A program made the position numbers and the translations under genes. A DNA stretch of 64,000 nucleotides from a virus (taxonomy: Duplodnaviria; Heunggongvirae; Uroviricota; Caudoviricetes): IMG/VR virus record IMGVR_UViG_3300025429_000011, positions 18,527 through 82,526 of that record. One strand, written 5' to 3'. The notes beneath the pieces are model-generated. The model worked only from the letters and a program-made list of their open reading frames with translations, ran no database searches and had not been told where the DNA came from. Below, in pieces: positions 1,074 through 32,049 of the stretch; the first letter of the stretch is position 1, and the number at the start of each line of letters is the position of its first letter.

Positions 1074-1389
1074 CCTTACTATAGATAAAGGCACTGACTT
1101 TATCTACAATATACATTTAATAGATTCTTCTGGGGTACCTGTTGACATTTCTGATTTTACAGGAAACTCTCAAATGAGAACATCCTATTCGTCCAATGTG
1201 CATGTAACATTGGACGTTGCAATATCAACAGCTAATAATGGGCTTATAACTCTATCAATGAATTCTGAAACTTCTAGCACACTTACTGCGTCTAGATATC
1301 TCTATGATTTAACACTAACAAGTAGTAACAATGTAGTTTCCAGATTAATGGAAGGCTTTGTTACTATTAATCCTAGTGTAACGCGTTAA
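1057..1389 (+). CDS. Hypothetical small Ser/Thr-rich protein downstream of the fibre, possibly a structural or fibre accessory protein.
   Basis: 110-aa ORF overlapping the previous stop. Codon usage is consistent with its neighbours. Confidence 0.4.
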   Translation: MSAQNNLTIDKGTDFIYNIHLIDSSGVPVDISDFTGNSQMRTSYSSNVHVTLDVAISTANNGLITLSMNSETSSTLTASRYLYDLTLTSSNNVVSRLMEGFVTINPSVTR

Positions 1390-4169
1390 ACGCGGTAAAT
1401 ATAAGATCCTGTATGATCACACATTATTGATGTATCAGCATAGATTTTAAACCTTTTTTCTTTACACATTCTAGCAAAGTATAGATCTTCTGAGAATGTG
1501 TGAGCATGATCTAATGCTGACTTATACACAAACTGCGGATAACCAATCTCAGTAAGCACATGCTGTTTAATAAGAGCGCAACCAAAACCAACAGCCCCAA
1601 CTTCTACTAAACCTTTGTCTTTTATTTTCTCATAAGGTATATGAGTATAGCCACCAAGCTCATTTGATTCAAAAATCTCTAGGGTATGCTGACCTTGTAT
1701 TCGTTGAATATAAAGACCAGATACTACATCAACATCATGGCTTAATAGTTTAACTAAAGTATCTGGTGCAAATGAAATATCAGAATCAACTGCAAACAAA
1801 TAATCATACCCTTTAACAACCCAGTCAGCAATCAAGTTACGTACTTGATCTACCTGATATCCGTAAAAGAATTGAAAGTAAGTTTCATATCCAGCTGGTA
1901 CAATCAAATCATAAATGGCTTTAAACGTAGACGCTTCTATATTTCTAGCTGTTGGAATTGCGATTAAAATCTTTTTTTTTATCATATTGTTTAACTTTTC
2001 TGTTGTATTATAAGCAATGATATCTTTTGTAGGAACCATTTCAACATTCAACGGACGAGGCGTCGAATTTACTTCTACTTTATTGATCTGTATTTTTTTA
2101 TCACCAGCTATCTTACTAGCATTCTTATTCTGAATCTCACCATTTACTTTATAATCATTCAATGGATTCTTATCATTATAAAGCATAACAATATCAGAAA
2201 CTACTGCAATCTTATTAGGATCAGCTTGTTCTAATATATTATAAAATGTTGCATTATCACCACCTGCCTTAAACCATTCACCGTTTTCATCTTTAAATAC
2301 AGAATCATCTTCAATGTTATGAACTAGTTCAGATCTAAAAACTCTGAGATGCGGATAAGGCATTCCCCAATTAAACTTATACTGACGATATGCCTTCTGA
2401 TCCTTTACCCATTGCGGATATGGTTGTGACTGTAGCGGGATGTTATCAACCTCCGACCAGCAACTGCCATAAGCATATTCTGTCTTATTATCTGCAAACA
2501 AGTTATTATACATGTTAAAGATATTTGGATCGTTAACTAGAGCATCATCCCCATCAAGGAGTACTACAATACTATCCTTAGGTACATCACGTTTAATATT
2601 TACTATTTGATTGTATACTGCACCACGGTTTACTGGATTATCTACAACAGTAAAATGTTTAATTAAATTAGGATATCTACCTTTAATATATTGTACTACC
2701 AAATCTAAACTACTATCATTACTACAATCATTTATAAGATGCATATGCCAGTTATTATAGTTTTGTGATGCAACTGAATCAATACATCTAATTAAATAAT
2801 CAAATGCATTATAGAAAGGCGTGATTACATGGATTCGTTTTTCTTCCGGTAATTTATATGTATTCCATTCTTCTGGATTACTAAAACGTCTTCCAAATAC
2901 TTTATGAACACGATCATTAATGAAAGATACTTTACGATACTCTTCTACAGGTAGATACAATCCAAGCTTCTTAAAGAGGTGTTGTTTCCATTGTAGTGCA
3001 ACCGTATCCCATCCTGCAATCTCTTTTACAATATTACATGCAAACATTTTTTGTTGATGTAAGTAAGTATTATGATAAGCATCAAAAGCCATACGAGCAA
3101 ATCTATCTGCTTGTTGAGCTACATCAATATTAGGAAAAAGACCATTAGGCTCGATTGCATAATCAATATGGTAACAAGCAGACTCAACTGCTGTCTCTTC
3201 TAATGCACCAAACCTATTAGTTAAAAGAGGTGTATTATAGTATAGAGATTCTAAAGCTGAAATACCGAATGTTTCAGGGAACCCTGCAGGAAAAATAAAA
3301 AATGACGCTTTCTGAAATAATTCTGCTACTTGCTTTTGAGGAATAATACCAGTAAAAGAAACATCCAATTCTTTATACTTTTTATCCTGAGCCAGTTCTT
3401 CTAGCTCTTTTTGTTGTTGATCTGGTTCTGAAGTAGAACTGAATCTATAGTAACCACCAGCAACAACCAATTTAGCATCTGGAATATTACGCTTTACTAA
3501 AGGCCATACATTTGCAAGTAAAGGTTTAAGACCCTTAGAGACTGCTGCAACATAAACAAATAAATTACGATCTTTCTGAAAAATATCTGTATTTTCAAAA
3601 TACTTTACTATGCCGTTTCTTGTCTGGAATACTTTATTTTTTAATACCTCAAAATTGCGGCGATTACCACCATGCCAGCAATTAGTCACATATGCTGTAT
3701 GAAAATCTGATAAAGTAAACATCTCATTAATATGGTTATTTAACAATAACGTCTCTACATGAGGGTCACCCCATATAAAGGTATCATGCATCCATAAAAC
3801 TTTATGTTTACTTACACGTCTAACTTTATCGAAAATTTGATAAGGATATTTTGTAGAATTTTCAATTTGAGACTGAAGAGGAATCGGCACAAAAGGTGTA
3901 ATACAACGTAACGATACCATAACATCATAATAATCATTACATTTTGCTAAAGTACTAATATGTCTATATTCGACTCTATCATAAACACCAGGTTTACAGT
4001 CGATATCATTGCAATCATTATAAATAGTAACTTGAAAGCCAATTTGTGCCAGCTCTCTAGCCATAAGAGCACATGCTGACTCAGAACCACCTAACGCTCG
4101 TTTTTTAATGGTATCTCCGTCATAAACCAAGCCAATAGAATCAATTATTACAATAGACGGATTGCTCAT
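1386..4169 (-). CDS. Three-domain glycosyltransferase: N-terminal GT4/GT-B domain, central GT2 (GT-A) domain and a C-terminal second GT-A-like domain.
   Basis: The GT4 domain has an LGGSE motif, and ..FPAGFPETFGISALESLYYNTPLL shows the E-x7-E motif. The GT2 domain has ITPFYNAFDYLIRCIDSVASQNY and LLDGDDALV. The third domain has ILIAIPT...YLFAVDSDISF. A 927-aa ORF. Confidence 0.75.
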   Translation of the reverse strand: MSNPSIVIIDSIGLVYDGDTIKKRALGGSESACALMARELAQIGFQVTIYNDCNDIDCKPGVYDRVEYRHISTLAKCNDYYDVMVSLRCITPFVPIPLQSQIENSTKYPYQIFDKVRRVSKHKVLWMHDTFIWGDPHVETLLLNNHINEMFTLSDFHTAYVTNCWHGGNRRNFEVLKNKVFQTRNGIVKYFENTDIFQKDRNLFVYVAAVSKGLKPLLANVWPLVKRNIPDAKLVVAGGYYRFSSTSEPDQQQKELEELAQDKKYKELDVSFTGIIPQKQVAELFQKASFFIFPAGFPETFGISALESLYYNTPLLTNRFGALEETAVESACYHIDYAIEPNGLFPNIDVAQQADRFARMAFDAYHNTYLHQQKMFACNIVKEIAGWDTVALQWKQHLFKKLGLYLPVEEYRKVSFINDRVHKVFGRRFSNPEEWNTYKLPEEKRIHVITPFYNAFDYLIRCIDSVASQNYNNWHMHLINDCSNDSSLDLVVQYIKGRYPNLIKHFTVVDNPVNRGAVYNQIVNIKRDVPKDSIVVLLDGDDALVNDPNIFNMYNNLFADNKTEYAYGSCWSEVDNIPLQSQPYPQWVKDQKAYRQYKFNWGMPYPHLRVFRSELVHNIEDDSVFKDENGEWFKAGGDNATFYNILEQADPNKIAVVSDIVMLYNDKNPLNDYKVNGEIQNKNASKIAGDKKIQINKVEVNSTPRPLNVEMVPTKDIIAYNTTEKLNNMIKKKILIAIPTARNIEASTFKAIYDLIVPAGYETYFQFFYGYQVDQVRNLIADWVVKGYDYLFAVDSDISFAPDTLVKLLSHDVDVVSGLYIQRIQGQHTLEIFESNELGGYTHIPYEKIKDKGLVEVGAVGFGCALIKQHVLTEIGYPQFVYKSALDHAHTFSEDLYFARMCKEKRFKIYADTSIMCDHTGSYIYRV

Positions 4170-4234: not shown

Positions 4235-7200
4235 ATGTCATCAGATATTTTAAATCAGCATCTAATCGGTAATGGAAGTAACACTCAATTCACCTTATTA
4301 GAAGCTGTTGCCAATACTAGCTCTATTCTAGTAACTATCAACGGTCTAGTATCAGATCCTGACAGAGATTATACGGTTTCAGATAATTTATTATTATTTA
4401 ATACCGCTCCATATAGTACTTCAGATATTGAAATTAGATATTTACCTGTAGTTCCCGTAGGATATACTGGGTCTGCAGGTGAACCTGCTGGTTACACTGG
4501 TTCTGCAGGACCAGTAGGAGCTCCTTCAGATATTCAGACTATAGTAGCTACTGGTTCATCTTATTACACTTTAACATCTACTCCTAATTCTTCTAAAAAT
4601 ATATTAGTATCTGTAAATGGACTCTTACAGGTTCCAGAAGCTGATTATACTGTTTCTGGTTCTACTATTAATTTTAATACTATACCAGTAGAATTATCTG
4701 ACATTGAAATAATTTATTTTGGTAATGTTGTAGGTTATAGAGGTTCTGCAGGGTTTCAAGGTTCTGTCGGATTTACAGGTTCTATTGGTTACAGTGGTAA
4801 TGATGGATACACTGGTTCGATTGGTTACACAGGTTCTATAGGTGGTGCAGGTCCAGCTGGTTACACAGGTTCTGGTGGTGTAGCAGCCCCATCTGGTTTT
4901 CAAACATTTTTAACAGATAATAGAACTTCTTATCCTATTGATAGGGTAGTAGCATCATCTAAAGATATCTTAGTTTCCGTTAACGGGTTAATACAAGTAC
5001 CTGACGCAGACTATATTGTTGTTGGTTCTAATATTAACTTTATAACAAAACCAAGTAATAATTCTGATGTAGAAATTTTATACTTTGATGTTGCAGGGTT
5101 TATTGGTTCTACTGGTTATCTTGGTTCAACTGGGTTTAAAGGTTCTTCCGGTGACAACGGCTTACCAGGTTTCGTAGGATCCCAAGGTTATACAGGCTCT
5201 TCTGGTTTTGTCGGTTCTATGGGGTATGTTGGTTCTGGTGGTGTTGCCGCACCTTCAGAAATACAAACTATAGTTGCTGATGGTTCTAGTACATATACTT
5301 TAACAAGATATGTTGTTGATCCTAAACATATTTTTGTTATCGTTAACGGTCTTATTCAGATTGCAGATAGAGATTATACTGCAGCTGCAACTACCCTTAC
5401 TTTCTATAATCCTCCTAATAATACTTCTGAAATTGAAATAATTTATTTTGAAGAAGCATTAGGATATCGAGGTTCTGTAGGTTATGCAGGTTCTGCAGGT
5501 ACACCTGGAGGATCTACTGGTTATACTGGTTCTAGAGGAACTGACGGTTCCTTTGGATATACGGGTTCTACTGGTTATGTTGGTTCTGCTGGTGTTGGAG
5601 CTCCTTCTTCATATCAAATTTTATATGCAAATGGCTCTAATACAGTATTTACGTTAACATCTTCTGTTGATGCAGCTAAAAATATCCTTGTTTCTGTTAA
5701 CGGTCTATTACAAATACCAGATACCGATTATACTGTATCCGGAACAACTATTTTATTTACTAATCCACCTAGTGATACTTCTCATATTGAAGTTTTATAT
5801 TTTGATGTTTCTGGATATAGAGGTTCCACTGGTTATATGGGATCTAAAGGTGATCCTGGCGGTGATACTGGTTATACTGGCTCTATAGGTCCAAAAGGTG
5901 ATATTGGTCCATTAGGTTATACTGGTTCTGTTGGATTTGGTTACACAGGTTCTGCAGGCCCTGTAGGTGCACCAACAAATTATCAAACTATTGTTACAAC
6001 ATTTAATCAATCAACTTATAGTTTAAATCAAGATGTTGCACAAGCAGTAAGTATAATCGTTACTATAAACGGTCTTGTTCAAGTACCAGATCAAGACTAT
6101 ACCCTTCCTACTTCTAATACAATTACATTTACCAATACTCCAAATCCTAATTCTGATGTTGAAATTTTATATTTTTCTGCATCAGGATTTACTGGATCAA
6201 GAGGTGCAGTAGGCTATCTAGGTTCAGTAGGTTATCAAGGTACTGTTGGTTTTAGCGGGTCGGCTGGTATTACTGGTTATATGGGATCTGCAGGGTCTGG
6301 GTTTACTGGCTCTATAGGTTATTCAGGATCTACAGGGTTTGCAGGATCTAGAGGAAGTTTAGGTTATACCGGCTCTATTGGTATTGGATACACAGGTTCA
6401 GTTGGTTCTGGTTATACTGGTTCTACTGGTGCTGGGTATACCGGCTCTATCGGTTCATTAGGTTATACTGGTTCACAAGGATTTCAAGGTCTTACTGGTT
6501 ATAGAGGTTCTACTGGTAGTACTGGTTTTGTAGGTTCTATTGGTTTAACAGGATCTATAGGTTATACAGGCTCTACTGGTGCCGGATTTGTTGGTTCTAG
6601 AGGTTTTGTTGGTTCTATTGGTTCACTAGGTTACACCGGATCTATTGGATTTACAGGTTCTATTGGTTATTCTGGTTCTAGAGGTGATATTGGTTTCTCT
6701 GGTTCAATAGGCTCGTTAGGTTATACAGGTTCTATTGGTATTGGATATACCGGTTCTACAGGAGCCCCTGGTGGTATTACGTATAACTATAGATTCATTA
6801 ATACACCTGTTGTTACTCCTGCATTTACTCAACAAGGTTATGCAGTTTTTAGTGCAACATCAAATGCTATTTACGTTACATCTGCTGACCTAGCAGGAGC
6901 AAATACTGCATACTTTATAGAGTATGCATTAAAATCAGTTAATAATAGTATAAAAGGGTTTGTAACTTTATCAAGAGCTTCGACACCTTATGATGTTACA
7001 ATATATTCAACTAACACTGCTATCTATTTCCCTTATCCTGCAGTACCTGCATTTCATAAAATATATCTTTCTTATCTGTCTGGTAATACTACACCTTACT
7101 TAGACAATGAAATAATTAACATTTCATTTACGTTAACTGGAAGTCAAGGACCTAAAGGTGATAAGGGCGATATTGGTTATACTGGTTCTGCAGGTCCAGC

Positions 7201-10200
7201 TGGTCCTTCTGGTGCATTTGCTGGTATGGGTTATACCGGTTCTATTGGTTCATTGGGTTATTCTGGATCTATTGGATATACTGGTTCTATAGGTATACAA
7301 GGTTCAATTGGCCCACAAGGCTACACAGGCTCTGTTGCTAACCCATCAGCTCCTGTAAGACAGAACTTTAACGGTGACGGTGTAACTAACACATACAGTA
7401 TTGATATCGGTCAAAACGTTAACGGTTATACACCTTATCAATTAGACGTTTATATTAACGGTGTAAAACTCTTTAACGGTATAGATGTCGATGTATCATC
7501 TGGTAATACCATACACTTTATTACCCCACCGAGAAAAGATGATAATATCGAAGTTGTAGGGTCATATATTTTCTCTACAAACCCAGATAGTGCAGCATTA
7601 TTTGGACCTAGAGGTTATACTGGGTCTGCTGGTCCACCTAACGGATATCAAGGATCTTTAGGTGAAACTGGCTATGTAGGTTCTAGAGGTTATACAGGTT
7701 CAACACCTAATCCTTCTGCACCTGTAAGACAAAATTTTAACGGTGATGGTACAACCAATACTTACTATATTGATATTGGTCAGAATGTAAATGGTTATAC
7801 ACCTTATCAGCTAGATGTTTATGTCAACGGTGTTAAGCTTTTCAATGGTATTGATGTTGATGTATCTTCTGGTAACTCTATTCATTTTATTACACCACCT
7901 AGAATAAACGATAACATTGAAATAGTTGGATCTTATATCTTTTCAACTAATCCAGACAGTGCTGCATTGTTTGGTCCAAGAGGGTATACTGGATCTCAAG
8001 GTCCACCAAACGGGTATCAAGGTTCTATTGGTGACATTGGTTATACTGGTTCTAGAGGCGATACTGGGTTTTCTGGTTCTGCTGGTACTATTGGTTACTC
8101 TGGTTCTGGTGTAAGTTTTAGAAGTTACTATAATAATACTACAAATTACTATATTAATGATTTAGTAGAAGAAGATGGTGCCACTTACATTGCTATTGCA
8201 CCTAGTATAGGAGAAGATCCTAAAACTAGCAACACATACTGGCAATTATTTGCTAGCAAAGGATATCAAGGTTCTAGAGGTTATACAGGTTCTACTCCTA
8301 ACCCATCGTCTCCTGTAAGACAAAACTTTAACGGTGATGGTGTTTCTAGAACTTATTATATTGATATTGGGCAAAATGTCAATGGTTATACTCCTTACGA
8401 GTTAGATGTATTCGTAAACGGTATTAAATTGTTTAACGGTCTTGATGTTGATGTATCATCTGGTAATGCTATTCACTTTGTAATACCGCCGAGAATAAAC
8501 GATAATATCGAAGTAGTAGGGTCATATATTTTCTCTACTAATCCTGATCAAAATGCATTATTTGGGCCAAGAGGTTATACTGGTTCAGCAGGATTAAACG
8601 GGGCTGGTAATTCATTTACTAAAATTGTTGTTAGCGGTCAACCAGATTTAGTAGCATTAGAAGCAGATACTCTTCAAATAGTTGCTGGTGATAATATAGT
8701 TATATCAACTAACAATATTAATTCACCTAAAACTTTAACAATTTCTACATCACTGCCATCTGGTGCATCTGGTTATACAGGTTCGCAAGGTATAACGGGT
8801 TATATAGGTTCTATAGGAATTACCGGTTATACAGGATCAAGAGGATCTGATGGTGTTATAGGTTATAGTGGAAGTATAGGTTTCACAGGTTCTAAAGGGT
8901 CTGATGGCACTATAGGTTATACAGGATCGCAAGGTAATATAGGAAATACTGGAGATACTGGCTATACCGGATCAAGTGGAATAGACGGTGCAGTAGGTTA
9001 TAATGGAAGTATAGGGTTCACAGGTTCTAAAGGGTCTGATGGTACTATAGGTTATACTGGATCTACAGGACCTGTAGCCGGATATGATACTCAAATTATA
9101 TTTAATGATGGTAGTTATGCTAATGGTTCTTATGGATTAACTTATAATAAATCTACTCAAACATTAAACATAGGAAATAATCTTTATGTAGGTGGTAACA
9201 TTTATATCACCGGCAACACTACAACTTTTGCTGCTAATAATTTAGAAATAGTAGATAATATGATCTACTTAAATTCTAATAGTGAATATTCAAATCCCGA
9301 TATTGGTTTTGCTGCAAATTATAATGACGGTGAATATCATCATACCGGTTTCTTTAGAGATCATGCAACAGGTATTTGGAAGGTATTTGAAAATTATAAA
9401 CCAGAACCGCAAGCATCACAATTTATTGATCAATCTAATAATACCTTTAGAATAGCAGATTTTCAAGCAAATACTATTTTTGCTAATTCAATATATGCAA
9501 ATGGTTCTTACGGTTCTTTTGGTCAAGTACTTATTTCTAATGGTTCAGGAATATTCTGGTCAACTTCTGCATTAGGGTTTAATGGTTCAACAGGGTATCA
9601 AGGTTCTTTAGGTGATACTGGCTACAAAGGTTCAATTGGTTACCAGGGTTCAGTTGGTAATCAAGGTATTTTTGGTTACCAGGGTTCTTCTGGCTACCAA
9701 GGATCAGTTGGTTATCAAGGAACTGTAGGTTTTCAAGGTTCAGCTGGCGCTACCGCCGATGCTGGTTATCAAGGAAGTGCAGGTTATCAGGGATCAGTAG
9801 GATTTCAAGGATCTTATGGATATCAAGGTACTGTAGGATTCCAAGGTTCTATAGGAGCTGTTGGATATCAAGGATCAGCAAGTGTTGGCTATAACGGTTC
9901 TACTGGATTTAATGGTTCTATAGGTAATAGAGGTCCTATAGGTTATACTGGATCAAAAGGTCAAGGATTTAATTGGAGAGGAGCTTGGGACGGAACACAT
10001 AATGATTTTGGTGATTATCAAGTATACCTTCCTTATGATGTAGTACAATATGATCTAAACACATATGTTTGTATAGTATTATGTTATGGTGATTCTGGTA
10101 CTCCTGCTGCAAGAACAGATTTATGGCAGATATTTGCAGAAGGTGTAGTAGGTTATGTTGGATCTAAAGGTCAAGATGGTGTACTGGGTTATAATGGTTC

Positions 10201-10858
10201 TATAGGTTATACAGGCTCAAAAGGTGATAATGGCGTTATTGGATATAACGGTTCTATAGGATATACAGGTTCTACTGGATTTGTTGGATCTTCTGGAGCA
10301 TCAGTTTATCAAGGCTATACTGGATCTACTGGTTATCAGGGTTCTAAAGGTGAAAGTTCTTATATTACCTCTGATACTGCACCTTCTAGTCCTTTAGTTG
10401 GAGATAGATGGTATAATACTACAGCTGGTATTGAACTAGTATGGACTTATGATGGTAATTCTTATCAGTGGGTAGAATTAGCTGCAAGCGGTTTCTTAGG
10501 TATGACCGGATATTCTGGTTCAATAGGAACTATAGGGTATACAGGTTCAGCTGCACAATCATTAATAAATTCAACTCAAAGTTCAATTTATGTTTTACAA
10601 TCTTCGGATGATGGTAAATTAATTAATACATCTTATAGCGTTACTATACCTTCAAATGTATTTACAGCAGGTCAGACAATTACAATATATAACAGTAGCC
10701 AAACTAACGGTATTACAGTTACTCAAGGAAGCGGCACAACCGTATATTTGGTTAATACTACTTCTGTTGGAGACAGAACAGTAGGAGTAAATGGTATTGC
10801 AGTTATAATATGCGTGGATAATAATACTTTTGTTATTTCTGGTGGTGGTGTATCTTAA
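4235..10858 (+). CDS. Giant (2207 aa) collagen-like tail-fibre or whisker-like structural protein. It has many G-X-Y runs (GYTGSIGYTGS..) interspersed with repeated beta-rich modules.
   Basis: Continuous ORF with collagen triplet periodicity. Six copies of an ILVSVNGLLQVPxxDYTVSG..EIIYF module sit in the N-terminal third. Three near-identical ~95-aa modules (NPSAPVRQNFNGDG..) follow in the middle. Confidence 0.85.
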   Translation: MSSDILNQHLIGNGSNTQFTLLEAVANTSSILVTINGLVSDPDRDYTVSDNLLLFNTAPYSTSDIEIRYLPVVPVGYTGSAGEPAGYTGSAGPVGAPSDIQTIVATGSSYYTLTSTPNSSKNILVSVNGLLQVPEADYTVSGSTINFNTIPVELSDIEIIYFGNVVGYRGSAGFQGSVGFTGSIGYSGNDGYTGSIGYTGSIGGAGPAGYTGSGGVAAPSGFQTFLTDNRTSYPIDRVVASSKDILVSVNGLIQVPDADYIVVGSNINFITKPSNNSDVEILYFDVAGFIGSTGYLGSTGFKGSSGDNGLPGFVGSQGYTGSSGFVGSMGYVGSGGVAAPSEIQTIVADGSSTYTLTRYVVDPKHIFVIVNGLIQIADRDYTAAATTLTFYNPPNNTSEIEIIYFEEALGYRGSVGYAGSAGTPGGSTGYTGSRGTDGSFGYTGSTGYVGSAGVGAPSSYQILYANGSNTVFTLTSSVDAAKNILVSVNGLLQIPDTDYTVSGTTILFTNPPSDTSHIEVLYFDVSGYRGSTGYMGSKGDPGGDTGYTGSIGPKGDIGPLGYTGSVGFGYTGSAGPVGAPTNYQTIVTTFNQSTYSLNQDVAQAVSIIVTINGLVQVPDQDYTLPTSNTITFTNTPNPNSDVEILYFSASGFTGSRGAVGYLGSVGYQGTVGFSGSAGITGYMGSAGSGFTGSIGYSGSTGFAGSRGSLGYTGSIGIGYTGSVGSGYTGSTGAGYTGSIGSLGYTGSQGFQGLTGYRGSTGSTGFVGSIGLTGSIGYTGSTGAGFVGSRGFVGSIGSLGYTGSIGFTGSIGYSGSRGDIGFSGSIGSLGYTGSIGIGYTGSTGAPGGITYNYRFINTPVVTPAFTQQGYAVFSATSNAIYVTSADLAGANTAYFIEYALKSVNNSIKGFVTLSRASTPYDVTIYSTNTAIYFPYPAVPAFHKIYLSYLSGNTTPYLDNEIINISFTLTGSQGPKGDKGDIGYTGSAGPAGPSGAFAGMGYTGSIGSLGYSGSIGYTGSIGIQGSIGPQGYTGSVANPSAPVRQNFNGDGVTNTYSIDIGQNVNGYTPYQLDVYINGVKLFNGIDVDVSSGNTIHFITPPRKDDNIEVVGSYIFSTNPDSAALFGPRGYTGSAGPPNGYQGSLGETGYVGSRGYTGSTPNPSAPVRQNFNGDGTTNTYYIDIGQNVNGYTPYQLDVYVNGVKLFNGIDVDVSSGNSIHFITPPRINDNIEIVGSYIFSTNPDSAALFGPRGYTGSQGPPNGYQGSIGDIGYTGSRGDTGFSGSAGTIGYSGSGVSFRSYYNNTTNYYINDLVEEDGATYIAIAPSIGEDPKTSNTYWQLFASKGYQGSRGYTGSTPNPSSPVRQNFNGDGVSRTYYIDIGQNVNGYTPYELDVFVNGIKLFNGLDVDVSSGNAIHFVIPPRINDNIEVVGSYIFSTNPDQNALFGPRGYTGSAGLNGAGNSFTKIVVSGQPDLVALEADTLQIVAGDNIVISTNNINSPKTLTISTSLPSGASGYTGSQGITGYIGSIGITGYTGSRGSDGVIGYSGSIGFTGSKGSDGTIGYTGSQGNIGNTGDTGYTGSSGIDGAVGYNGSIGFTGSKGSDGTIGYTGSTGPVAGYDTQIIFNDGSYANGSYGLTYNKSTQTLNIGNNLYVGGNIYITGNTTTFAANNLEIVDNMIYLNSNSEYSNPDIGFAANYNDGEYHHTGFFRDHATGIWKVFENYKPEPQASQFIDQSNNTFRIADFQANTIFANSIYANGSYGSFGQVLISNGSGIFWSTSALGFNGSTGYQGSLGDTGYKGSIGYQGSVGNQGIFGYQGSSGYQGSVGYQGTVGFQGSAGATADAGYQGSAGYQGSVGFQGSYGYQGTVGFQGSIGAVGYQGSASVGYNGSTGFNGSIGNRGPIGYTGSKGQGFNWRGAWDGTHNDFGDYQVYLPYDVVQYDLNTYVCIVLCYGDSGTPAARTDLWQIFAEGVVGYVGSKGQDGVLGYNGSIGYTGSKGDNGVIGYNGSIGYTGSTGFVGSSGASVYQGYTGSTGYQGSKGESSYITSDTAPSSPLVGDRWYNTTAGIELVWTYDGNSYQWVELAASGFLGMTGYSGSIGTIGYTGSAAQSLINSTQSSIYVLQSSDDGKLINTSYSVTIPSNVFTAGQTITIYNSSQTNGITVTQGSGTTVYLVNTTSVGDRTVGVNGIAVIICVDNNTFVISGGGVS
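4300..6200 (+). repeat. Six diverged copies of a ~40-aa module (I[LI]V[ST][IV]NGL[LIV]Q[VI]PDxDYT..[ST][DE][IV]E[IV][IL]YF), alternating with collagen G-X-Y stretches, period ~350 nt.
   Basis: Read directly in the protein translation at residues ~30, 120, 250, 365, 480 and 590. Confidence 0.7.
7327..8575 (+). repeat. Three tandem near-identical ~95-aa domain repeats (NPSAPVRQNFNGDGVTNTYSIDIGQNVNGYTPYQLDVYINGVKLFNGIDVDVSSGN.IHFITPPR..NIEVVGSYIFSTNPDSAALFGPRGYTGS).
   Basis: Copies begin at about nt 7331, 7715 and 8282. They are ~85-90% aa identical, with many synonymous nucleotide differences. Confidence 0.8.
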
Positions 10859-11622
10859 TGAGTATTTTTAATGCTATAACTTCTATACCCTATCAAGCTG
10901 CATATTTGCCAGCTGGAGTTTCATACGGAAGCGCGCTTCTTAACAATCTATATGTTGGTAATTCAGATAGAAGTTTAGGATCAGGGTATCTTTATACTTC
11001 CCGTACAGGTGGATTTATTACTTCCGGCTCACTAAATGATTTTACTATAGAAGCATGGATATATCCTAAGTGGTTTAGTTATTCTGGTGGATATTATAAT
11101 ATGGTTATTATGAGTACCCACACTGGAAGTGGAAATCCAGGATGGGAATTTAAATTACAAGGTCCTTCTGCATCTAGATGGACTTCTTTAACTTTACGTA
11201 ATCAAAGAATTTCAACAGATTATCAATTTCCTATAAATTTAGGAGGAAGTGATCTTAACAAATGGTATCATGTTGCCATAGTATATACTTCATCTAATCA
11301 TAGTTTAATTGGTTATTTAAATGGGAATGTATTATCATCTATATCTCCAGCTTATTTTTCAGATAATAATATTCTTCATGTTGGATTTAATTATACATAC
11401 TTCCCTTATTGGTTTAAGGGAAACCTTACTAATTTAAGAATATCTAAAACTGCAAGATATACTAATTATTTTACACCATCTGTAGCACACAATATAGCAG
11501 ATAGTAATGATACATTTATAATGAATATGCCAACAAGTAATTTTTTACAAGAAGATACCGGACTAACTATTTTATATTCAGGTGATCCTAGTGTAGTTTC
11601 ACAAGATAATAATCACCCTTAA
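10858..11622 (+). CDS. LamG / concanavalin-A-like lectin domain protein (structural accessory).
   Basis: DFTIEAWIYPKW...WYHVAIVYTSSNHSLIGYLNGNV matches the pentraxin/LamG_3 pattern (FT[IV]xAW..., W.HVA.VY, ..LY.NG). Confidence 0.5.
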   Translation: MSIFNAITSIPYQAAYLPAGVSYGSALLNNLYVGNSDRSLGSGYLYTSRTGGFITSGSLNDFTIEAWIYPKWFSYSGGYYNMVIMSTHTGSGNPGWEFKLQGPSASRWTSLTLRNQRISTDYQFPINLGGSDLNKWYHVAIVYTSSNHSLIGYLNGNVLSSISPAYFSDNNILHVGFNYTYFPYWFKGNLTNLRISKTARYTNYFTPSVAHNIADSNDTFIMNMPTSNFLQEDTGLTILYSGDPSVVSQDNNHP

Positions 11623-11655: not shown

Positions 11656-13683
11656 ATGACAATTATTGATTTTCCTAATAGCCCAGCAGATGGTGATATC
11701 TATACATTTGGAAATAAATCCTGGCAATGGAATGCGTCAGGAAACTATTGGTTTGCAATATCAAAAACAATAGGCTATTCAGGCTCGATAGGGTATACCG
11801 GATCTTCTGGTGCATCTGTATACATGGGATATACCGGGTCACAAGGATATTATGGTTCTACCGGGTTTCAAGGCTCTTTAGGCTATGATGGTTCTATTGG
11901 ATATACAGGATCTATAGGTTATACAGGTTCAACTGGATTTCAAGGATCAGCTGGGTTTGTAGGATCTCAAGGAACAAGTGGTGTTATAGGATATATTGGC
12001 TCTTCTGGTTTTACTGGTTCTACCGGGTTTAATGGTTCAGTAGGGTTTATAGGTTCTATAGGTTATTCTGGATCCATAGGTTACAACGGTTCTTTTGGTT
12101 TTACTGGTTCTACCGGGTTTAATGGGTCGGTAGGATTTACTGGATCACTAGGTTATACAGGATCTTTAGGTTACAGCGGTTCTATTGGGTATACTGGTTC
12201 TACAGGGTTTAATGGGTCGATAGGTTTTACAGGATCATTAGGTTTTACAGGATCATTAGGTTATAACGGTTCTACTGGATTTCAAGGGTCGTCAGGATTT
12301 AATGGATCTATAGGTTTTAACGGATCTATTGGATATACAGGTTCAATAGGGTATATAGGATCAGCTGGTTTTCAAGGGTCAACTGGTTTTCAAGGATCAG
12401 TAGGATTTATAGGGTCATTAGGATTTACTGGATCCCAAGGTGTTAACGGTGTAATAGGCTATAATGGATCGGTAGGATTTACAGGGTCAATTGGATATAC
12501 AGGGTCTGCTTCTACTACACCGGGATATAATGGTTCTTTTGGGTATACTGGTTCGCAAGGTGCAAACAGTTTATACACACAATCTAATACTGCTCCTCTA
12601 TATCCTAATCCAGGTGATAGATGGTTTAATACTGATATTGGAATTGAGTTAGTATACACAACAGATGCTAACGGTTCACAGTGGGTAGAAATTGCATCTA
12701 GCGGATTTTTAGGTCAAACTGGTTATAATGGGTCTCAAGGTGTTATCGGGTATACTGGATCACAAGGCATTCAAGGCATTATAGGTTATTCTGGTTCAGT
12801 AGGATTTAACGGATCTATTGGATTTACAGGTTCAACAGGATTTACGGGCTCTACTGGTTTTAACGGATCGATTGGATTTGTAGGATCTATAGGTTTTACA
12901 GGTTCTATTGGTACAGGGTATGTAGGTTCTAAAGGGTTTAATGGTTCAATAGGTGCAACAGGTTATGTTGGATCTACAGGATCAACACCTACTATAACTT
13001 ATACTTCACCTACTATGAACGTGTTTACATCTGGTTCTGGAACATATACAACACCAGGAAGTGTTGTGTGGATACGCGTACGAATGATAGGCGGTGGCGG
13101 TGGCGGTGGTGGTGGTGGCACTAATAATTCAACCACATATAATTCAGTATATGCAGGAGCAAACGGAACTGCAACAACGTTTGGTGGTACTTTACTAGTA
13201 TGTAATCCTGGTCAAGGTGGTTTTGGTGCATATGATCTGCAATATGGTTTTGGAGGTACTGCTTCTATTGGTGATACTTCAAAAGCATTTGGTATTGCAT
13301 TAAACGGTGCATCTGGAGAACCAGGTTGGTCATCATCTCCTTCTACTTATGTTTCTGGTGGTTCTGGTGGTGCATCACCTTTTGGAGGTGCAGGGGCAAG
13401 AGGTTCTGGTGGTACAACCCCGGATGCAGTTTCAATTGCTGCGTCACCAAATACAGGAAGCGGCGGCGGAGGTGGTGGCAGCACTAACGCTACTAACGCA
13501 AGAGGCGGCGGCGGTGGAGGCGCTGGAGGTTACATAGATGTTATAATAAGAATTCCAGATGCAACGTATTCATATGTAGTAGGTACTGGCGGAAGAGGTG
13601 GAGCTAACGGTACATCACAGTCTGGTTCAGGTAACACAGGTGCTTCTGGTATTATTATGATTGAAGAGCATTATGGTAGCTAA
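11656..13683 (+). CDS. Collagen-like fibre protein with a conserved N-terminal module and a C-terminal glycine-rich domain (GGGGGGGGGG tracts).
   Basis: The N-terminus is DFPNSPADGDIYTFGNKSWQWNASGNYW. G-X-Y repeats are (GYTGS/GFNGS)n. The C-terminus is FTSGSGTYTTPGSVVWIRVRMIGGGGGGGGGG...GASGIIMIEEHYGS. Confidence 0.8.
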   Translation: MTIIDFPNSPADGDIYTFGNKSWQWNASGNYWFAISKTIGYSGSIGYTGSSGASVYMGYTGSQGYYGSTGFQGSLGYDGSIGYTGSIGYTGSTGFQGSAGFVGSQGTSGVIGYIGSSGFTGSTGFNGSVGFIGSIGYSGSIGYNGSFGFTGSTGFNGSVGFTGSLGYTGSLGYSGSIGYTGSTGFNGSIGFTGSLGFTGSLGYNGSTGFQGSSGFNGSIGFNGSIGYTGSIGYIGSAGFQGSTGFQGSVGFIGSLGFTGSQGVNGVIGYNGSVGFTGSIGYTGSASTTPGYNGSFGYTGSQGANSLYTQSNTAPLYPNPGDRWFNTDIGIELVYTTDANGSQWVEIASSGFLGQTGYNGSQGVIGYTGSQGIQGIIGYSGSVGFNGSIGFTGSTGFTGSTGFNGSIGFVGSIGFTGSIGTGYVGSKGFNGSIGATGYVGSTGSTPTITYTSPTMNVFTSGSGTYTTPGSVVWIRVRMIGGGGGGGGGGTNNSTTYNSVYAGANGTATTFGGTLLVCNPGQGGFGAYDLQYGFGGTASIGDTSKAFGIALNGASGEPGWSSSPSTYVSGGSGGASPFGGAGARGSGGTTPDAVSIAASPNTGSGGGGGGSTNATNARGGGGGGAGGYIDVIIRIPDATYSYVVGTGGRGGANGTSQSGSGNTGASGIIMIEEHYGS

Positions 13684-13703: not shown

Positions 13704-14318
13704 ATGAGTATTAATTTTCCTGCTAACCCAACACCTAATCAAGTATACACACTAGGTAGTAAAACTTGGACTTGGAATGCAGTATATGGTTACTGGCAGG
13801 CAACATCTACAACCATTGGGTATACCGGTTCACAAGGTAACCAAGGTTACTTAGGTTATACTGGTTCAACTGGGTTTCAAGGATCAGTTGGATACCAAGG
13901 ATCAACTGGGTATCAAGGATCTGTAGGTTTTCAAGGATCTGCTGGGTTTCAAGGATCTGCTGGGTTTCAAGGATCTGCTGGGTTTCAAGGGTCAGCAGGA
14001 TTTAATGGATCTTTCGGTTATACAGGATCTCTTGGTTATGCTGGATCTATAGGTCTTGCAAATGCTGTAGTTAGTGATACTGCTCCAGGTACTCCTGCTA
14101 CTGGCCAATTATGGCTAGACTCTTCTACTGGTCTGCTAAATATATGGTATTCTCCTTCTAATGTGTGGCTTTCGGTAACATCAGTAGGCATTCAAGGACA
14201 GACCGGTTATGCTGGTTCTGTGGGAAATCCTGGACCTGCAGGAGGAGCTACTGGTTATCAAGGGTCAGCTGGCTCTCTAAGTGCAGCTATAGGTATATCA
14301 ATTATTTTTGGAATTTAA
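13704..14318 (+). CDS. Short collagen-like fibre protein (paralogous N-terminal module NFPANPTPNQVYTLGSKTWTWNAVYGYW).
   Basis: 204-aa ORF with G-X-Y runs (GFQGSAGFQGSAGFQGS). Confidence 0.7.
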   Translation: MSINFPANPTPNQVYTLGSKTWTWNAVYGYWQATSTTIGYTGSQGNQGYLGYTGSTGFQGSVGYQGSTGYQGSVGFQGSAGFQGSAGFQGSAGFQGSAGFNGSFGYTGSLGYAGSIGLANAVVSDTAPGTPATGQLWLDSSTGLLNIWYSPSNVWLSVTSVGIQGQTGYAGSVGNPGPAGGATGYQGSAGSLSAAIGISIIFGI

Positions 14319-19354: not shown

Positions 19355-19362
19355 TATAAATA
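19355..19362 (+). promoter_or_regulatory. Canonical T4-type late promoter TATAAATA upstream of the 19398 fibre gene.
   Basis: Exact TATAAATA about 35 nt upstream of the ATG. Confidence 0.5.
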
Positions 19363-19397: not shown

Positions 19398-20630
19398 ATG
19401 ACCACGAAGATTTTCGTTTCCCAGATTGATAAAACTAATCCTGACGGGTATACAGGTTCTACCGGTGCCTTCTTAATCCTTGGTTCAACTGGACCTTATT
19501 GGGCTAGTGGTGACGCTGCTGCACCTGTAGGATTTTTAGGTTCTATAGGTTTTCAAGGATCTTCTGGATTTCAAGGATCTTTTGGATATACAGGGTATCA
19601 AGGATCACTAGGTTTTGTTGGTTATACTGGCTCAATTGGGTTTCAAGGTTCATCTGGATTTTTAGGATCATCAGGATTTCAAGGTTCTTTAGGTGATACT
19701 GGATATAAAGGATCTTTTGGTGATGTTGGTTTTAGAGGATCACAAGGTGTAATAGGTGATCAAGGTCCAGTAGGCTATCAAGGATCTACTTCTTTTGCTG
19801 GTTCAGTAGGATTTCAAGGTTCTGTCGGCCCTCCTGGACCAATTAATATTGGATTTCAAGGGTCATTAGGTGACACAGGTTACCAAGGATCAGCTGGTTT
19901 CCTAGGTTCTTCTGGATTTCAAGGTTCAGTAGGATTTTTAGGATCTTCAGGATTCTTAGGTTCAGCAGGATTTGCAGGTAGTGTAGGTTACGGTCTAACA
20001 GGCTATACTGGGTCAGTAGGTGCATCAGGAGGGCTAGGGCCTTTTGGTTATCAAGGATCTACTGGTTTTACTGGATCTGTACCCAATGTGAGTTTAACTG
20101 GTCTTGTTGATTTTCCTGCTTCATATACTTCTCCAAACGCATTTTTAAGAGTAAATGCTGCTGCTTCTGGTATTGTATTTGATACAAATACTTACATTAC
20201 TAATTCAATGTCTACTGGCATCAGTATGAATTATAATACATTGTTTAATCCAGTTCTTCTTGGATATGGTGAAGTAGTAAATCCAATTGGTAATGCAACA
20301 GTAACCGGTTTTGGTTTTACACCAACCGCTAATGGAAATATTGTTACTGTAACATTAACTGATTCTGTTGTTGGTGTTACAATAGGTACTACTGGAATGG
20401 TGTCTGGTAGATTATATACCGCAACAATGTTTATTAAACAAGACGGTACAGGTAACAGAACAATAGATTGGTCTGCTTTAAATATAAAATGGCCAACTGG
20501 TGAAAGTACGCCTCCTACAGGACCTGTTCTTTCTATACAACCAAATTATACAGATGTTATAACATTATATACTTTAAATGCAGGAACTACATGGTATGGT
20601 ATTTTAGCTATTAAAGGTTTTAACGGTTAA
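19398..20630 (+). CDS. Collagen-like fibre protein.
   Basis: Long G-X-Y region (GFQGSSGFQGSFGYTGYQGS..) followed by a non-collagenous C-terminal domain. Confidence 0.8.
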   Translation: MTTKIFVSQIDKTNPDGYTGSTGAFLILGSTGPYWASGDAAAPVGFLGSIGFQGSSGFQGSFGYTGYQGSLGFVGYTGSIGFQGSSGFLGSSGFQGSLGDTGYKGSFGDVGFRGSQGVIGDQGPVGYQGSTSFAGSVGFQGSVGPPGPINIGFQGSLGDTGYQGSAGFLGSSGFQGSVGFLGSSGFLGSAGFAGSVGYGLTGYTGSVGASGGLGPFGYQGSTGFTGSVPNVSLTGLVDFPASYTSPNAFLRVNAAASGIVFDTNTYITNSMSTGISMNYNTLFNPVLLGYGEVVNPIGNATVTGFGFTPTANGNIVTVTLTDSVVGVTIGTTGMVSGRLYTATMFIKQDGTGNRTIDWSALNIKWPTGESTPPTGPVLSIQPNYTDVITLYTLNAGTTWYGILAIKGFNG

Positions 20631-31779: not shown

Positions 31780-32049
31780 ATGGCGGATATAGAAGATCTT
31801 TTAGTTCATGCTTGGAATAAAGATGCGGTAAATCTTAAGCCTGCATTAGATGATATTATGACAGCAAAAGTAGCAGAAAGAATGGATGATACATTCATGG
31901 ATGTTGCTGCTTCAATTTATGGTAGTACTGATGGTGATCCTAATAATGAACCTCTAGACGGCGATTCAGATTTAGATACACAAGATAACACAGATAACGA
32001 AGGAACCCCAGAAGATGCCGATGAATTTGAAGCAAATAATCAAGAGTAA
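31780..32049 (+). CDS. Small very acidic protein (gp67-like prohead core protein candidate).
   Basis: MADIEDLL...DGDSDLDTQDNTDNEGTPEDADEFE is highly acidic. Position matches T4 gp67 between gp20 and gp21. A strong RBS precedes the ATG at 31780. Confidence 0.5.
   Translation: MADIEDLLVHAWNKDAVNLKPALDDIMTAKVAERMDDTFMDVAASIYGSTDGDPNNEPLDGDSDLDTQDNTDNEGTPEDADEFEANNQE

Follow-up and report, generated by a model that had tools for sequence, protein, structure and literature searches.

The 2207-aa open reading frame at 4235..10858 (+) encodes a segmented collagen-like protein that is probably a structural fibre with a rope-and-node build and a chimeric distal end, from an uncultured T4-like myovirus of low GC content, in whose host-recognition (tail-fibre) cluster the gene lies. 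Coordinates refer to the window, the whole 64,000-nucleotide stretch of DNA that was analysed. The gene starts with an ATG, and the description of it in an earlier note as a single, real mosaic ORF held: rods of collagen alternate with ~15 interspersed globular domains, nine of which (T1-T6 and U1-U3) share one anchor-like fold. The fibre contains 26 Gly-X-Y runs of at least four triplets, 286 triplets in total, bearing out the earlier count of more than 20; when runs of at least three triplets are counted, the collagen register covers 919 of the 2207 residues (42%). The longest near-continuous collagen stretch spans 198 aa (aa 651-848; 6185..6778, +), and a GYQGS-type block lies farther along the protein (aa 1781-1911; 9575..9967, +). 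The fibre passes the Pfam threshold for uninterrupted Gly-X-Y repeats, matching PF01391 (Collagen) over 15 stretches at E 1.8e-85 and 281 bits, against a cutoff of 27.2. Three chains would form a rope of collagen triple-helix segments interrupted by the small globular nodes. With the collagen rise of 0.286 nm per residue, the ~860-920 Gly-X-Y residues would give ~250 nm of collagen, and the fibre could reach ~300 nm if fully extended.

The collagen is of the GYTGS type, with Ser, Tyr, and Phe at X and abundant Thr at Y, the latter also common in prokaryotic collagens (PMC8968730). Pro is rare at X (15 of 286 positions), and because the collagen is proline-poor, the stability of the triple helix is only predicted. 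Collagen alone scored above threshold when single fibre domains were searched against Pfam, and a megablast search of the gene against 50,697 deposited phage records returned no match and no close homologue; the weak matches among isolate phages are proteins annotated as tail fibre. Large and chimeric, the protein belongs to an established type of host-recognition protein in phages and is not new in kind. It shares Gly-X-Y repeats and globular domains with collagen-like tail-fibre and minor-tail proteins (PHROG 5073, 1806, and 6320; PF01391 fibres); however, it is far larger than known collagen-like phage fibres, has many more nodes, most of them anchor-like, and has Ser, Tyr, and Phe at X in place of Pro.

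The proximal part of the fibre is an array of six copies of a beta-module (ILVSVNGLLQVPDxDYT...EIIYF), at aa 1-75, 98-166, 218-287, 339-409, 456-526, and 581-650. The copy number agrees with the earlier note, whereas the size does not, as each copy is a non-collagen domain of ~70 aa rather than ~40 aa; pairwise identity among the six is 36-56%. T1, the N-terminal copy (aa 1-75; 4235..4459, +), matches the podovirus tail-fibre anchor signature PF03906 at E 0.009, and four of five orthologues conserve its N-terminus; judged from its sequence, T1 is likely the end by which the fibre attaches to the virion. Each of the other five (T2-T6, aa 98-650; 4526..6184, +) is followed by a collagen segment of 46-54 aa. 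Only three of 24 T modules reached E<=0.01 against PF03906 (best E 6e-5), and the T profile also matched the K1 depolymerase 9k4a (E 7e-7) and the fibre gp28 of cyanophage P-SCSP1u. The fibre departs from the T7-like anchor (T7 gp17, P-SCSP1u gp28; PF03906) in several ways: its modules score below the gathering threshold (25.2 bits, with a top score of 21.8 bits among the matches listed), there are nine copies, eight of them internal and collagen-flanked with T1 alone N-terminal, and its phage is a myovirus without an adaptor-nozzle dock.

Three copies of the NPSAPVRQNFNGDG unit follow at aa 1035-1123 (U1; 7337..7603, +), aa 1158-1246 (U2; 7706..7972, +; 92% identical to U1), and aa 1355-1443 (U3; 8297..8563, +). 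They had been described as near-identical tandem domains of ~95 aa; the three copies stand, but the unit measures 89 aa, and since the start-to-start distances are 123 and 197 aa, with collagen linkers in between and a 50-aa CBM-like domain separating U2 from U3, the units are not strictly tandem. The copies share 82-92% amino acid and 77-78% nucleotide identity, and they differ mostly synonymously (40-54 synonymous vs 11-26 non-synonymous differences), as noted before. Synonymous sites are saturated (pS 0.56-0.81) and pN is 0.04-0.11, so that the units are under strong purifying selection, again in line with the first reading. Identical residues are encoded by identical codons about as often as independent draws on the codon usage of the gene would give: slightly less often in U1-U2 (z -2.0), more often in U1-U3 (z +2.1), and at expectation in U2-U3 and the L001 pair. 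Selected synonymous divergence between the units, as a form of anti-recombination recoding, is therefore unsupported. Exact nucleotide matches between units reach just 16-23 nt, which together with synonymous saturation argues against ongoing homologous recombination or gene conversion and for copy gains that are old. The proposed recombination-driven change in copy number thus survives in that the number of units varies among relatives, but not as an ongoing process.

The T and U profiles align with each other (hhalign probability 91.7%, E 8e-7), so that the supposed two distinct repeat families are distant homologues of one fold. That the U unit might be Ig-like or carbohydrate-binding, as had been asked, found no support: it has the beta-sandwich of a tail-fibre anchor, and it resembles both the beta-sandwich/jelly-roll of the PF03906 fibre N-terminus and the XD-type beta-sheet fold of T4 gp10 and CBA120 TSP4-N, while a PF03906 search with the U units themselves gave no match. 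When just the 89-aa unit was the query, a word-indexed homology search found no relatives, and an exhaustive profile search was needed, which recovered 712 cluster representatives, often with multiple copies per protein; a scan of IMG/VR with the U profile added one good further relative only. This unnamed domain family is a relative of the T7-fibre anchor and possibly of the DUF4183 fold. Bacillus BclA, whose one collagen region bears a C1q-like head, and the DUF4183 F-ENA spore appendages are among the nearest known systems, and both are bacterial spore-surface proteins, not virion proteins. Fold likeness to CBA120 TSP4-N and the T4 gp10 XD domains extends to the C-terminal tip of the fibre, and the modular and, for the fibre, presumably trimeric architecture is alike; however, the domains of the fibre do not stack but sit at intervals along collagen rods, and no triple beta-helix anchor domain was detected in it.

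Neither array behaves as the hotspot of host-range variation that the repeats had been taken for. The T array keeps its positional orthology across relatives and is thus stable, and between relatives no part of the protein is as conserved as U (pN 0.04-0.07, against 0.20-0.34 for other domains), which poorly fits a variable host-range determinant. T2-T6 and U1-U3 are most likely points of trimer registration and nucleation, and hinges, for the proline-poor collagen. The anchor-like fold is known mostly for protein-protein docking, and a registration role may for that reason understate what the nodes do. The conservation of U would be easier to reconcile with a conserved partner from the phage than with a host receptor that varies, which raises the prospect of a branching scaffold, in which the nine anchor/XD-like nodes, U especially, dock other phage fibres, as with CBA120 TSP4 and T4 gp10, and the protein serves as the trunk of a tree-like complex for receptor binding. 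Downstream, there are at least three more genes for collagen-like fibres, whose smaller products would be the candidate partners. We regard such a trunk as unlikely, however: many unrelated fibre proteins carry the module in mid-shaft, as 2-22 copies and without evident partners, likeness of fold by itself would be no proof of docking, and the monomer model is of moderate confidence (pLDDT 76).

Besides the T and U modules, the fibre carries domains of other kinds. The 120-aa non-collagen K domain (aa 849-968; 6779..7138, +) is present in the relatives P0001, P0002, L004, P0006, and P0008 and missing from P0003 and P0004; a PDB sequence search with it gave chance-level matches alone. Two CBM5/12-like modules, C1 (aa 1293-1342; 8111..8260, +) and C2 (aa 1912-1969; 9968..10141, +), are separate from the U units. 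Single C-module sequences had no match in Pfam, but a profile of seven sequences with invariant Y, Y, and W positions matched the chitin-binding domain of ChiA1 (1ED7, E 1.3e-5) and the CBMs of Vibrio chitin deacetylases (E ~1e-5), a similarity that includes the conserved aromatics. The D domain (aa 1615-1780; 9077..9574, +) weakly matched a staphylococcal autolysin in a PDB sequence search (E 6e-4) through an Asn-rich stretch, a likely compositional match that was set aside. The terminal cassette (aa 2042-2207; 10358..10855, +) consists of a W-motif beta-hairpin domain, a 21-aa collagen segment, and a ~100-aa beta-sandwich tip, which was modelled confidently (pLDDT ~97) and has 26 homologues, including complete fibre genes of ~152 aa. 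The two CBM5/12-like modules and the tip cassette are the probable ligand-binding elements of the distal half, and they may make the first, reversible contact with glycans on the host surface.

An orthologue of 1216-1457 aa occupies the same locus in five close and two distant metagenomic relatives. Three U units are present in two of the orthologues and two in the other four, and where the full orthologue is available, it carries variable inserts and two or three of the 89-aa units. U2 is an additional copy with respect to P0001, P0002, and L004, whereas U3 is the orthologue of the last unit in P0001 and P0002. The N domain (aa 1459-1509; 8609..8761, +) is the last segment held in common with these orthologues, and the fibre is ~750 aa longer than any of them. 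Its C-terminal ~700 aa are chimeric. The junction comes after the N domain and coincides with a domain boundary; an in-frame collagen segment (aa 1510-1614; 8762..9076, +) then opens the extension missing from the orthologues. The D domain is 76-79% identical to a domain within the giant gene located after the fibre gene in relatives, and 62% identical to P0008, and the last 166 aa correspond to stand-alone fibre genes of ~152 aa elsewhere, such as the complete 152-aa P0275-P0277. Variation takes other forms than a repeat hotspot: modules are inserted and lost, and the C-terminal end is replaced as a whole. The fibre probably evolves through gain, loss, and replacement of whole modules rather than through repeat slippage: the proximal six-node array is old and fixed, the 89-aa unit underwent separate, long-past duplications in two lineages, and the distal end is a chimera that joins parts of the giant fibre gene next to it with a small fibre gene of the stand-alone kind.

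That the protein exceeds all its orthologues and joins, in its C-terminal part, pieces that are separate genes elsewhere could also mean that repeats were collapsed, expanded, or chimerically joined in assembly and that no natural 2207-aa ORF exists. The earlier note had named this as the outcome that would undo its reading. We consider it very improbable and reject repeat collapse or expansion: no internal DNA repeat longer than ~100 nt exceeds 82% identity, which makes the repeats unambiguous for an assembler, and the matches between U units are far shorter still. The reading frame is open throughout 6.6 kb at 34% GC, the junction respects a domain boundary and stays in frame, and the next gene begins at the stop codon of the fibre gene.

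The setting of the fibre gene agrees with the preferred reading. The window is a T4-like myovirus structural module, with T4-type terminase, sheath, portal, scaffold, and major capsid genes, and tail-fibre genes lie on both sides of the ORF; a Peptidase_S74 fibre, an LtfC-like gene, and Laminin_G_3 proteins are nearby. The order Peptidase_S74 fibre, LtfC-like gene, glycosyltransferase (-), and collagen fibre recurs in seven related contigs, placing the gene in the variable tail-fibre cluster of the module with conserved synteny. Tail fibres, glycosyltransferases, and collagen-repeat proteins also make up the “host recognition cluster” of pelagimyophages and cyanomyophages (PMC7029224), and the match in gene order supports the tail-fibre cluster reading; the collagen-repeat proteins of those phages likewise sit in a T4-like tail-fibre cluster. 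The tail, as opposed to the neck, whiskers, or capsid, is indicated by gene neighbourhood alone. A fibre on the neck, whiskers, or capsid, raising the encounter rate or sensing the environment like T4 fibritin or capsid spikes, would suit the estimated length, far beyond a T4-type tail, the absence of similarity to T4 gp34-37 in the searches run, and the capsid spike of Pseudomonas phage Pa223 among the fold matches of the tip. It seems quite improbable, given that the gene sits among tail-fibre and baseplate-type genes and that matches to its modules include tail-fibre PHROGs and proteins that carry a tail-fibre annotation.

The gene divergent from the fibre gene encodes a 927-aa GT1+GT2 glycosyltransferase (1386..4169, -); in each of the seven related genomes examined, it is likewise the neighbour of the fibre gene. 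The 65-nt intergenic region lacks an exact TATAAATA (T4-type late promoter); its sole near-match is AATAAATA at ~4182, and an exact copy of TATAAATA lies at 4019, within the glycosyltransferase gene. A functional link between enzyme and fibre is hypothetical. The fibre might be the substrate of the enzyme, with O-glycosylated Thr at Y and Ser at X of the GYTGS repeats stabilising and hydrating the proline-poor helix, a suggestion that we hold only tentatively and rate as doubtful. Thr glycosylation in the cuticle collagen of Riftia is a parallel. Glycosylation is also documented for the collagen-like BclA (PMC8968730). If true, the glycosyltransferases of host-recognition clusters in marine T4-like phages, now read as modifiers of host LPS, would be virion-glycosylating enzymes.

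The fibre is a case, dissected in full, of the construction and change of very long phage fibres, in which stable proximal anchor-like nodes on collagen rods are combined with a distal end rebuilt by cassette swaps between neighbouring fibre genes. Its near-identical protein repeats with fully randomised synonymous sites mark neither an assembly problem nor an active recombination hotspot. The U family is now placed near the T7-fibre anchor and, tentatively, the DUF4183 fold, and the conserved glycosyltransferase-fibre pair makes virion glycosylation in aquatic T4-like phages testable.

The fibre gene (4235-10858, + strand) is an open reading frame of 2207 codons with an ATG start, and it is real; a 6.6-kb open frame at ∼34% GC is not plausible by chance. 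The observation in the earlier note of a single 2207-aa collagen-like ORF was confirmed, while the interpretation built on it was supported in part. Gly-X-Y runs of at least four triplets numbered 26 (286 triplets in total), in agreement with the >20 claimed; when runs of three or more triplets are included, 919 of the 2207 residues (42%) were in collagen register, and Pfam Collagen matched the protein with an E-value of 1.8e-85. The composition of the collagen was unusual, with mainly Ser, Tyr or Phe at X, mainly Thr, Ile or Gln at Y, and Pro at X in just 15 of the 286 triplets.

The ILVSVNGLLQVPDxDYT...EIIYF module occurs in six copies (T1-T6), as previously described, but each is a ∼70-aa non-collagen domain rather than a ∼40-aa one; collagen segments of 46-54 aa follow each of T2-T6, and a shorter one follows T1. 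The three 89-aa units, U1 (aa 1035-1123), U2 (aa 1158-1246), and U3 (aa 1355-1443), are likewise genuine repeats, but not strictly in tandem, since collagen linkers separate them and a 50-aa domain additionally lies between U2 and U3. Although T and U had been presented as two distinct families, their profiles aligned over 60 columns (hhalign probability 91.7%, E 8e-7), and they are therefore branches of a single family. Matches of T modules to Pfam Phage_T7_tail (N-terminal domain) were sub-threshold (21.8 bits at best among the matches listed; cutoff 25.2), with 3 of 24 modules reaching E ≤ 0.01; the T profile also matched two tandem copies in the K1 capsule depolymerase 9k4a (E 7e-7) and the fibre of cyanophage P-SCSP1u. 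Exhaustive profile searching recovered 712 cluster representatives at E ≤ 1e-3, some of which reach Pfam DUF4183, from proteins often containing 2-22 copies; the unit is therefore a widespread fibre module that for the most part has no name. The C modules resemble CBM5/12, as their profile matched the chitin-binding domain of chitinase A1 (E 1.3e-5), and the tip was modelled confidently as a beta-sandwich (pLDDT ∼97) resembling TSP4-N, a capsid spike, and baseplate proteins.

Whole-protein searches yielded four metagenomic orthologues of 1216-1457 aa (P0001-P0004), 43-57% identical to the fibre over its N-terminal ∼1500 aa, and a scan of IMG/VR added a fifth of 1396 aa (L004); no close homologue was found among deposited phage genomes. 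With c denoting collagen, C the CBM-like module, and K, N, D, and W other domains, the architecture of this gene is T×6-c198-K-U-U-C-U-N-c105-D-collagen-C-W-tip, compared with T×6-K-U-C-U-N in P0001, an alternative N-terminus plus T×5-K-U-C-U-N in P0002, T×6-U-U-U-N in P0003, T×5-C-T-C-U-U-N in P0004, and T×6-K-U-U-N in L004. Each T module was 60-75% identical to its positional counterpart in P0002 and P0003 (∼50% for T4), whereas paralogous T modules within the fibre gene were 36-56% identical; the modules are thus positionally orthologous, and the sixfold array is older than these phages and stable.

The window is a T4-like myovirus structural module, in which the fibre gene is accompanied by genes for the large terminase, sheath, portal, scaffold, and major capsid protein, along with UvsW-like helicase and gp46-like genes. 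The capsid protein was just 59-66% identical to its closest counterparts in deposited phages (Stenotrophomonas phage DLP_6, Methylophilales phage Melnitz, and Pelagibacter phage Mosig), which marks the phage as divergent and uncultured. On the 5′ side of the fibre gene are an ORF (120-1073, +) ending in a Peptidase_S74 intramolecular-chaperone domain (a tail fibre C-terminus), a 110-aa LtfC-like beta-sandwich gene following it (the two spanning 120-1389, +, in the same order as in the related contig L011), and a divergently oriented 927-aa GT1+GT2 glycosyltransferase (1386-4169, −). On the 3′ side, a 254-aa Laminin_G_3 (ConA-like lectin) gene (10858-11622, +) begins at the final base of the fibre stop codon, which suggests translational coupling, and is followed by three more collagen-like fibre genes (11656-13683, 13704-14318, and 19398-20630, all +; 675, 204, and 410 aa), bringing the collagen-containing fibre proteins of this phage to at least four. 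This neighbourhood matches the “host recognition cluster” described for pelagimyophages and cyanomyophages, in which tail fibres and glycosyltransferases occur together with structural proteins that contain collagen repeats (PMC7029224). Exact copies of the T4 late-promoter consensus, TATAAATA, were rarer overall than chance (6 found versus 15 expected), and included sites at 19355, 27353, 30097, 31748, and 45731; four of the six lie 33-47 nt upstream of starts (the collagen fibre at 19398, sheath, portal, and helicase) and a fifth precedes the gene at 32015 by ∼260 nt. The intergenic region upstream of the fibre gene contained no exact TATAAATA, only AATAAATA.

All five orthologues adjoin the same divergent glycosyltransferase, with two extra genes intervening in the P0002 contig, and the pair is also kept in the contigs carrying the distant relatives P0006 and P0008 (seven of seven related contigs examined). 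The glycosyltransferase is far more conserved than the fibre, with 82-87% identity in close and 59-60% in distant relatives, versus 43-57% and ∼36%, respectively, for the fibre. It might glycosylate the Thr/Ser-rich fibre collagen, stabilizing that collagen, rather than host LPS.

The C-terminus is chimeric. The orthologues terminate ∼70 aa past the N domain, whereas this fibre continues with a 105-aa collagen segment and then D, which is 76-79% identical to a domain within a giant gene (2062-2623 aa) located 3′ of the fibre gene in relatives and absent from the window. For the final 166 aa (W-motif, short collagen, and tip), 26 homologues were recovered, including complete 152-aa proteins that start with the W-motif, of which one is encoded on a 159-kb contig; thus, the distal ∼700 aa were assembled from pieces that are separate genes elsewhere. 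Variation in the fibre is concentrated in this distal region and in whether C and K modules are present. The giant gene, at 13747-21540 of contig L001 and 13877-18109 of L003, consists mostly of degenerate “SNxYVxNxFTSN”-type repeats; it holds two D-domain copies in L001, and only one survives in the window, fused into the fibre. The W-motif (…GxRWxW/xxxGxxW…) opens many small stand-alone fibre proteins (for example, P0275-P0277), takes the place of T1 at the N-terminus of P0002 (L002/L003), and is internal here (aa 2042-2085), where it may delimit a portable cassette.

Copy number does vary among the relatives, with two or three U units per orthologue. The units sort into “first” and “last” orthologous types; U2 of the fibre is additional and shares 92% identity with U1, and P0003 has its own U1/U2 pair (94% identical), so the gain from two to three occurred at least twice. 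Pairwise, the U units were 82-92% identical as proteins and 77-78% as DNA and, as the earlier note had it, differed mostly synonymously (40-54 synonymous versus 11-26 non-synonymous differences; pS 0.56-0.81). At residues identical between two units, identical codons were about as frequent as expected from independent draws on the gene’s own codon usage (39 versus 47.7, 52 versus 43.2, and 44 versus 44.4 for the three pairs); synonymous sites are therefore fully randomized, and both gains are old enough for such saturation. The longest exact matches between units were 16-23 nt, and no internal DNA repeat longer than ∼100 nt exceeded 82% identity, which argues against the recombination previously proposed, at least as ongoing gene conversion or homologous exchange. 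An assembly artefact in the repeats was rejected on the same figures. Adjacent U1/U2 copies (7337-7972; also L001) were 92-94% alike as proteins, versus 77-80% to the other genome’s orthologue, despite saturated synonymous sites; separate old duplications explain this likeness, and protein-level co-evolution of the copies may also contribute. Between the fibre gene and P0002, pS was saturated everywhere, and pN was 0.04-0.07 in U, 0.20-0.33 in T, 0.34 in K, and 0.25 in N. Within the fibre, U is under the tightest constraint, a pattern that does not suit a hypervariable determinant of host range and agrees better with a conserved structural or protein-protein role.

The fibre is best explained as a trimeric, segmented collagen rope. 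At the textbook collagen rise of 0.286 nm per residue, the triple helix would measure ∼250 nm, or roughly 300 nm with the nodes if extended. The rope would be anchored through T1, the T and U nodes would act as points of registration and nucleation and also as hinges, and initial, reversible binding to glycans on the host surface would fall to the distal CBM5/12-like modules and the tip. In the main competing model, the anchor/XD-like nodes would serve as docking sites for other fibre proteins, so that the complex branches as in CBA120 and T4 gp10 (PMC8825819); the strong conservation of U somewhat favours such docking, but the module is widespread mid-shaft without evident partners, which speaks against it. 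Precedents are known for collagen-like phage fibres, T7-type anchor domains, CBM modules, and the exchange of cassettes between fibre genes, and this fibre is a very large, well-resolved further example, ordinary in kind but instructive.
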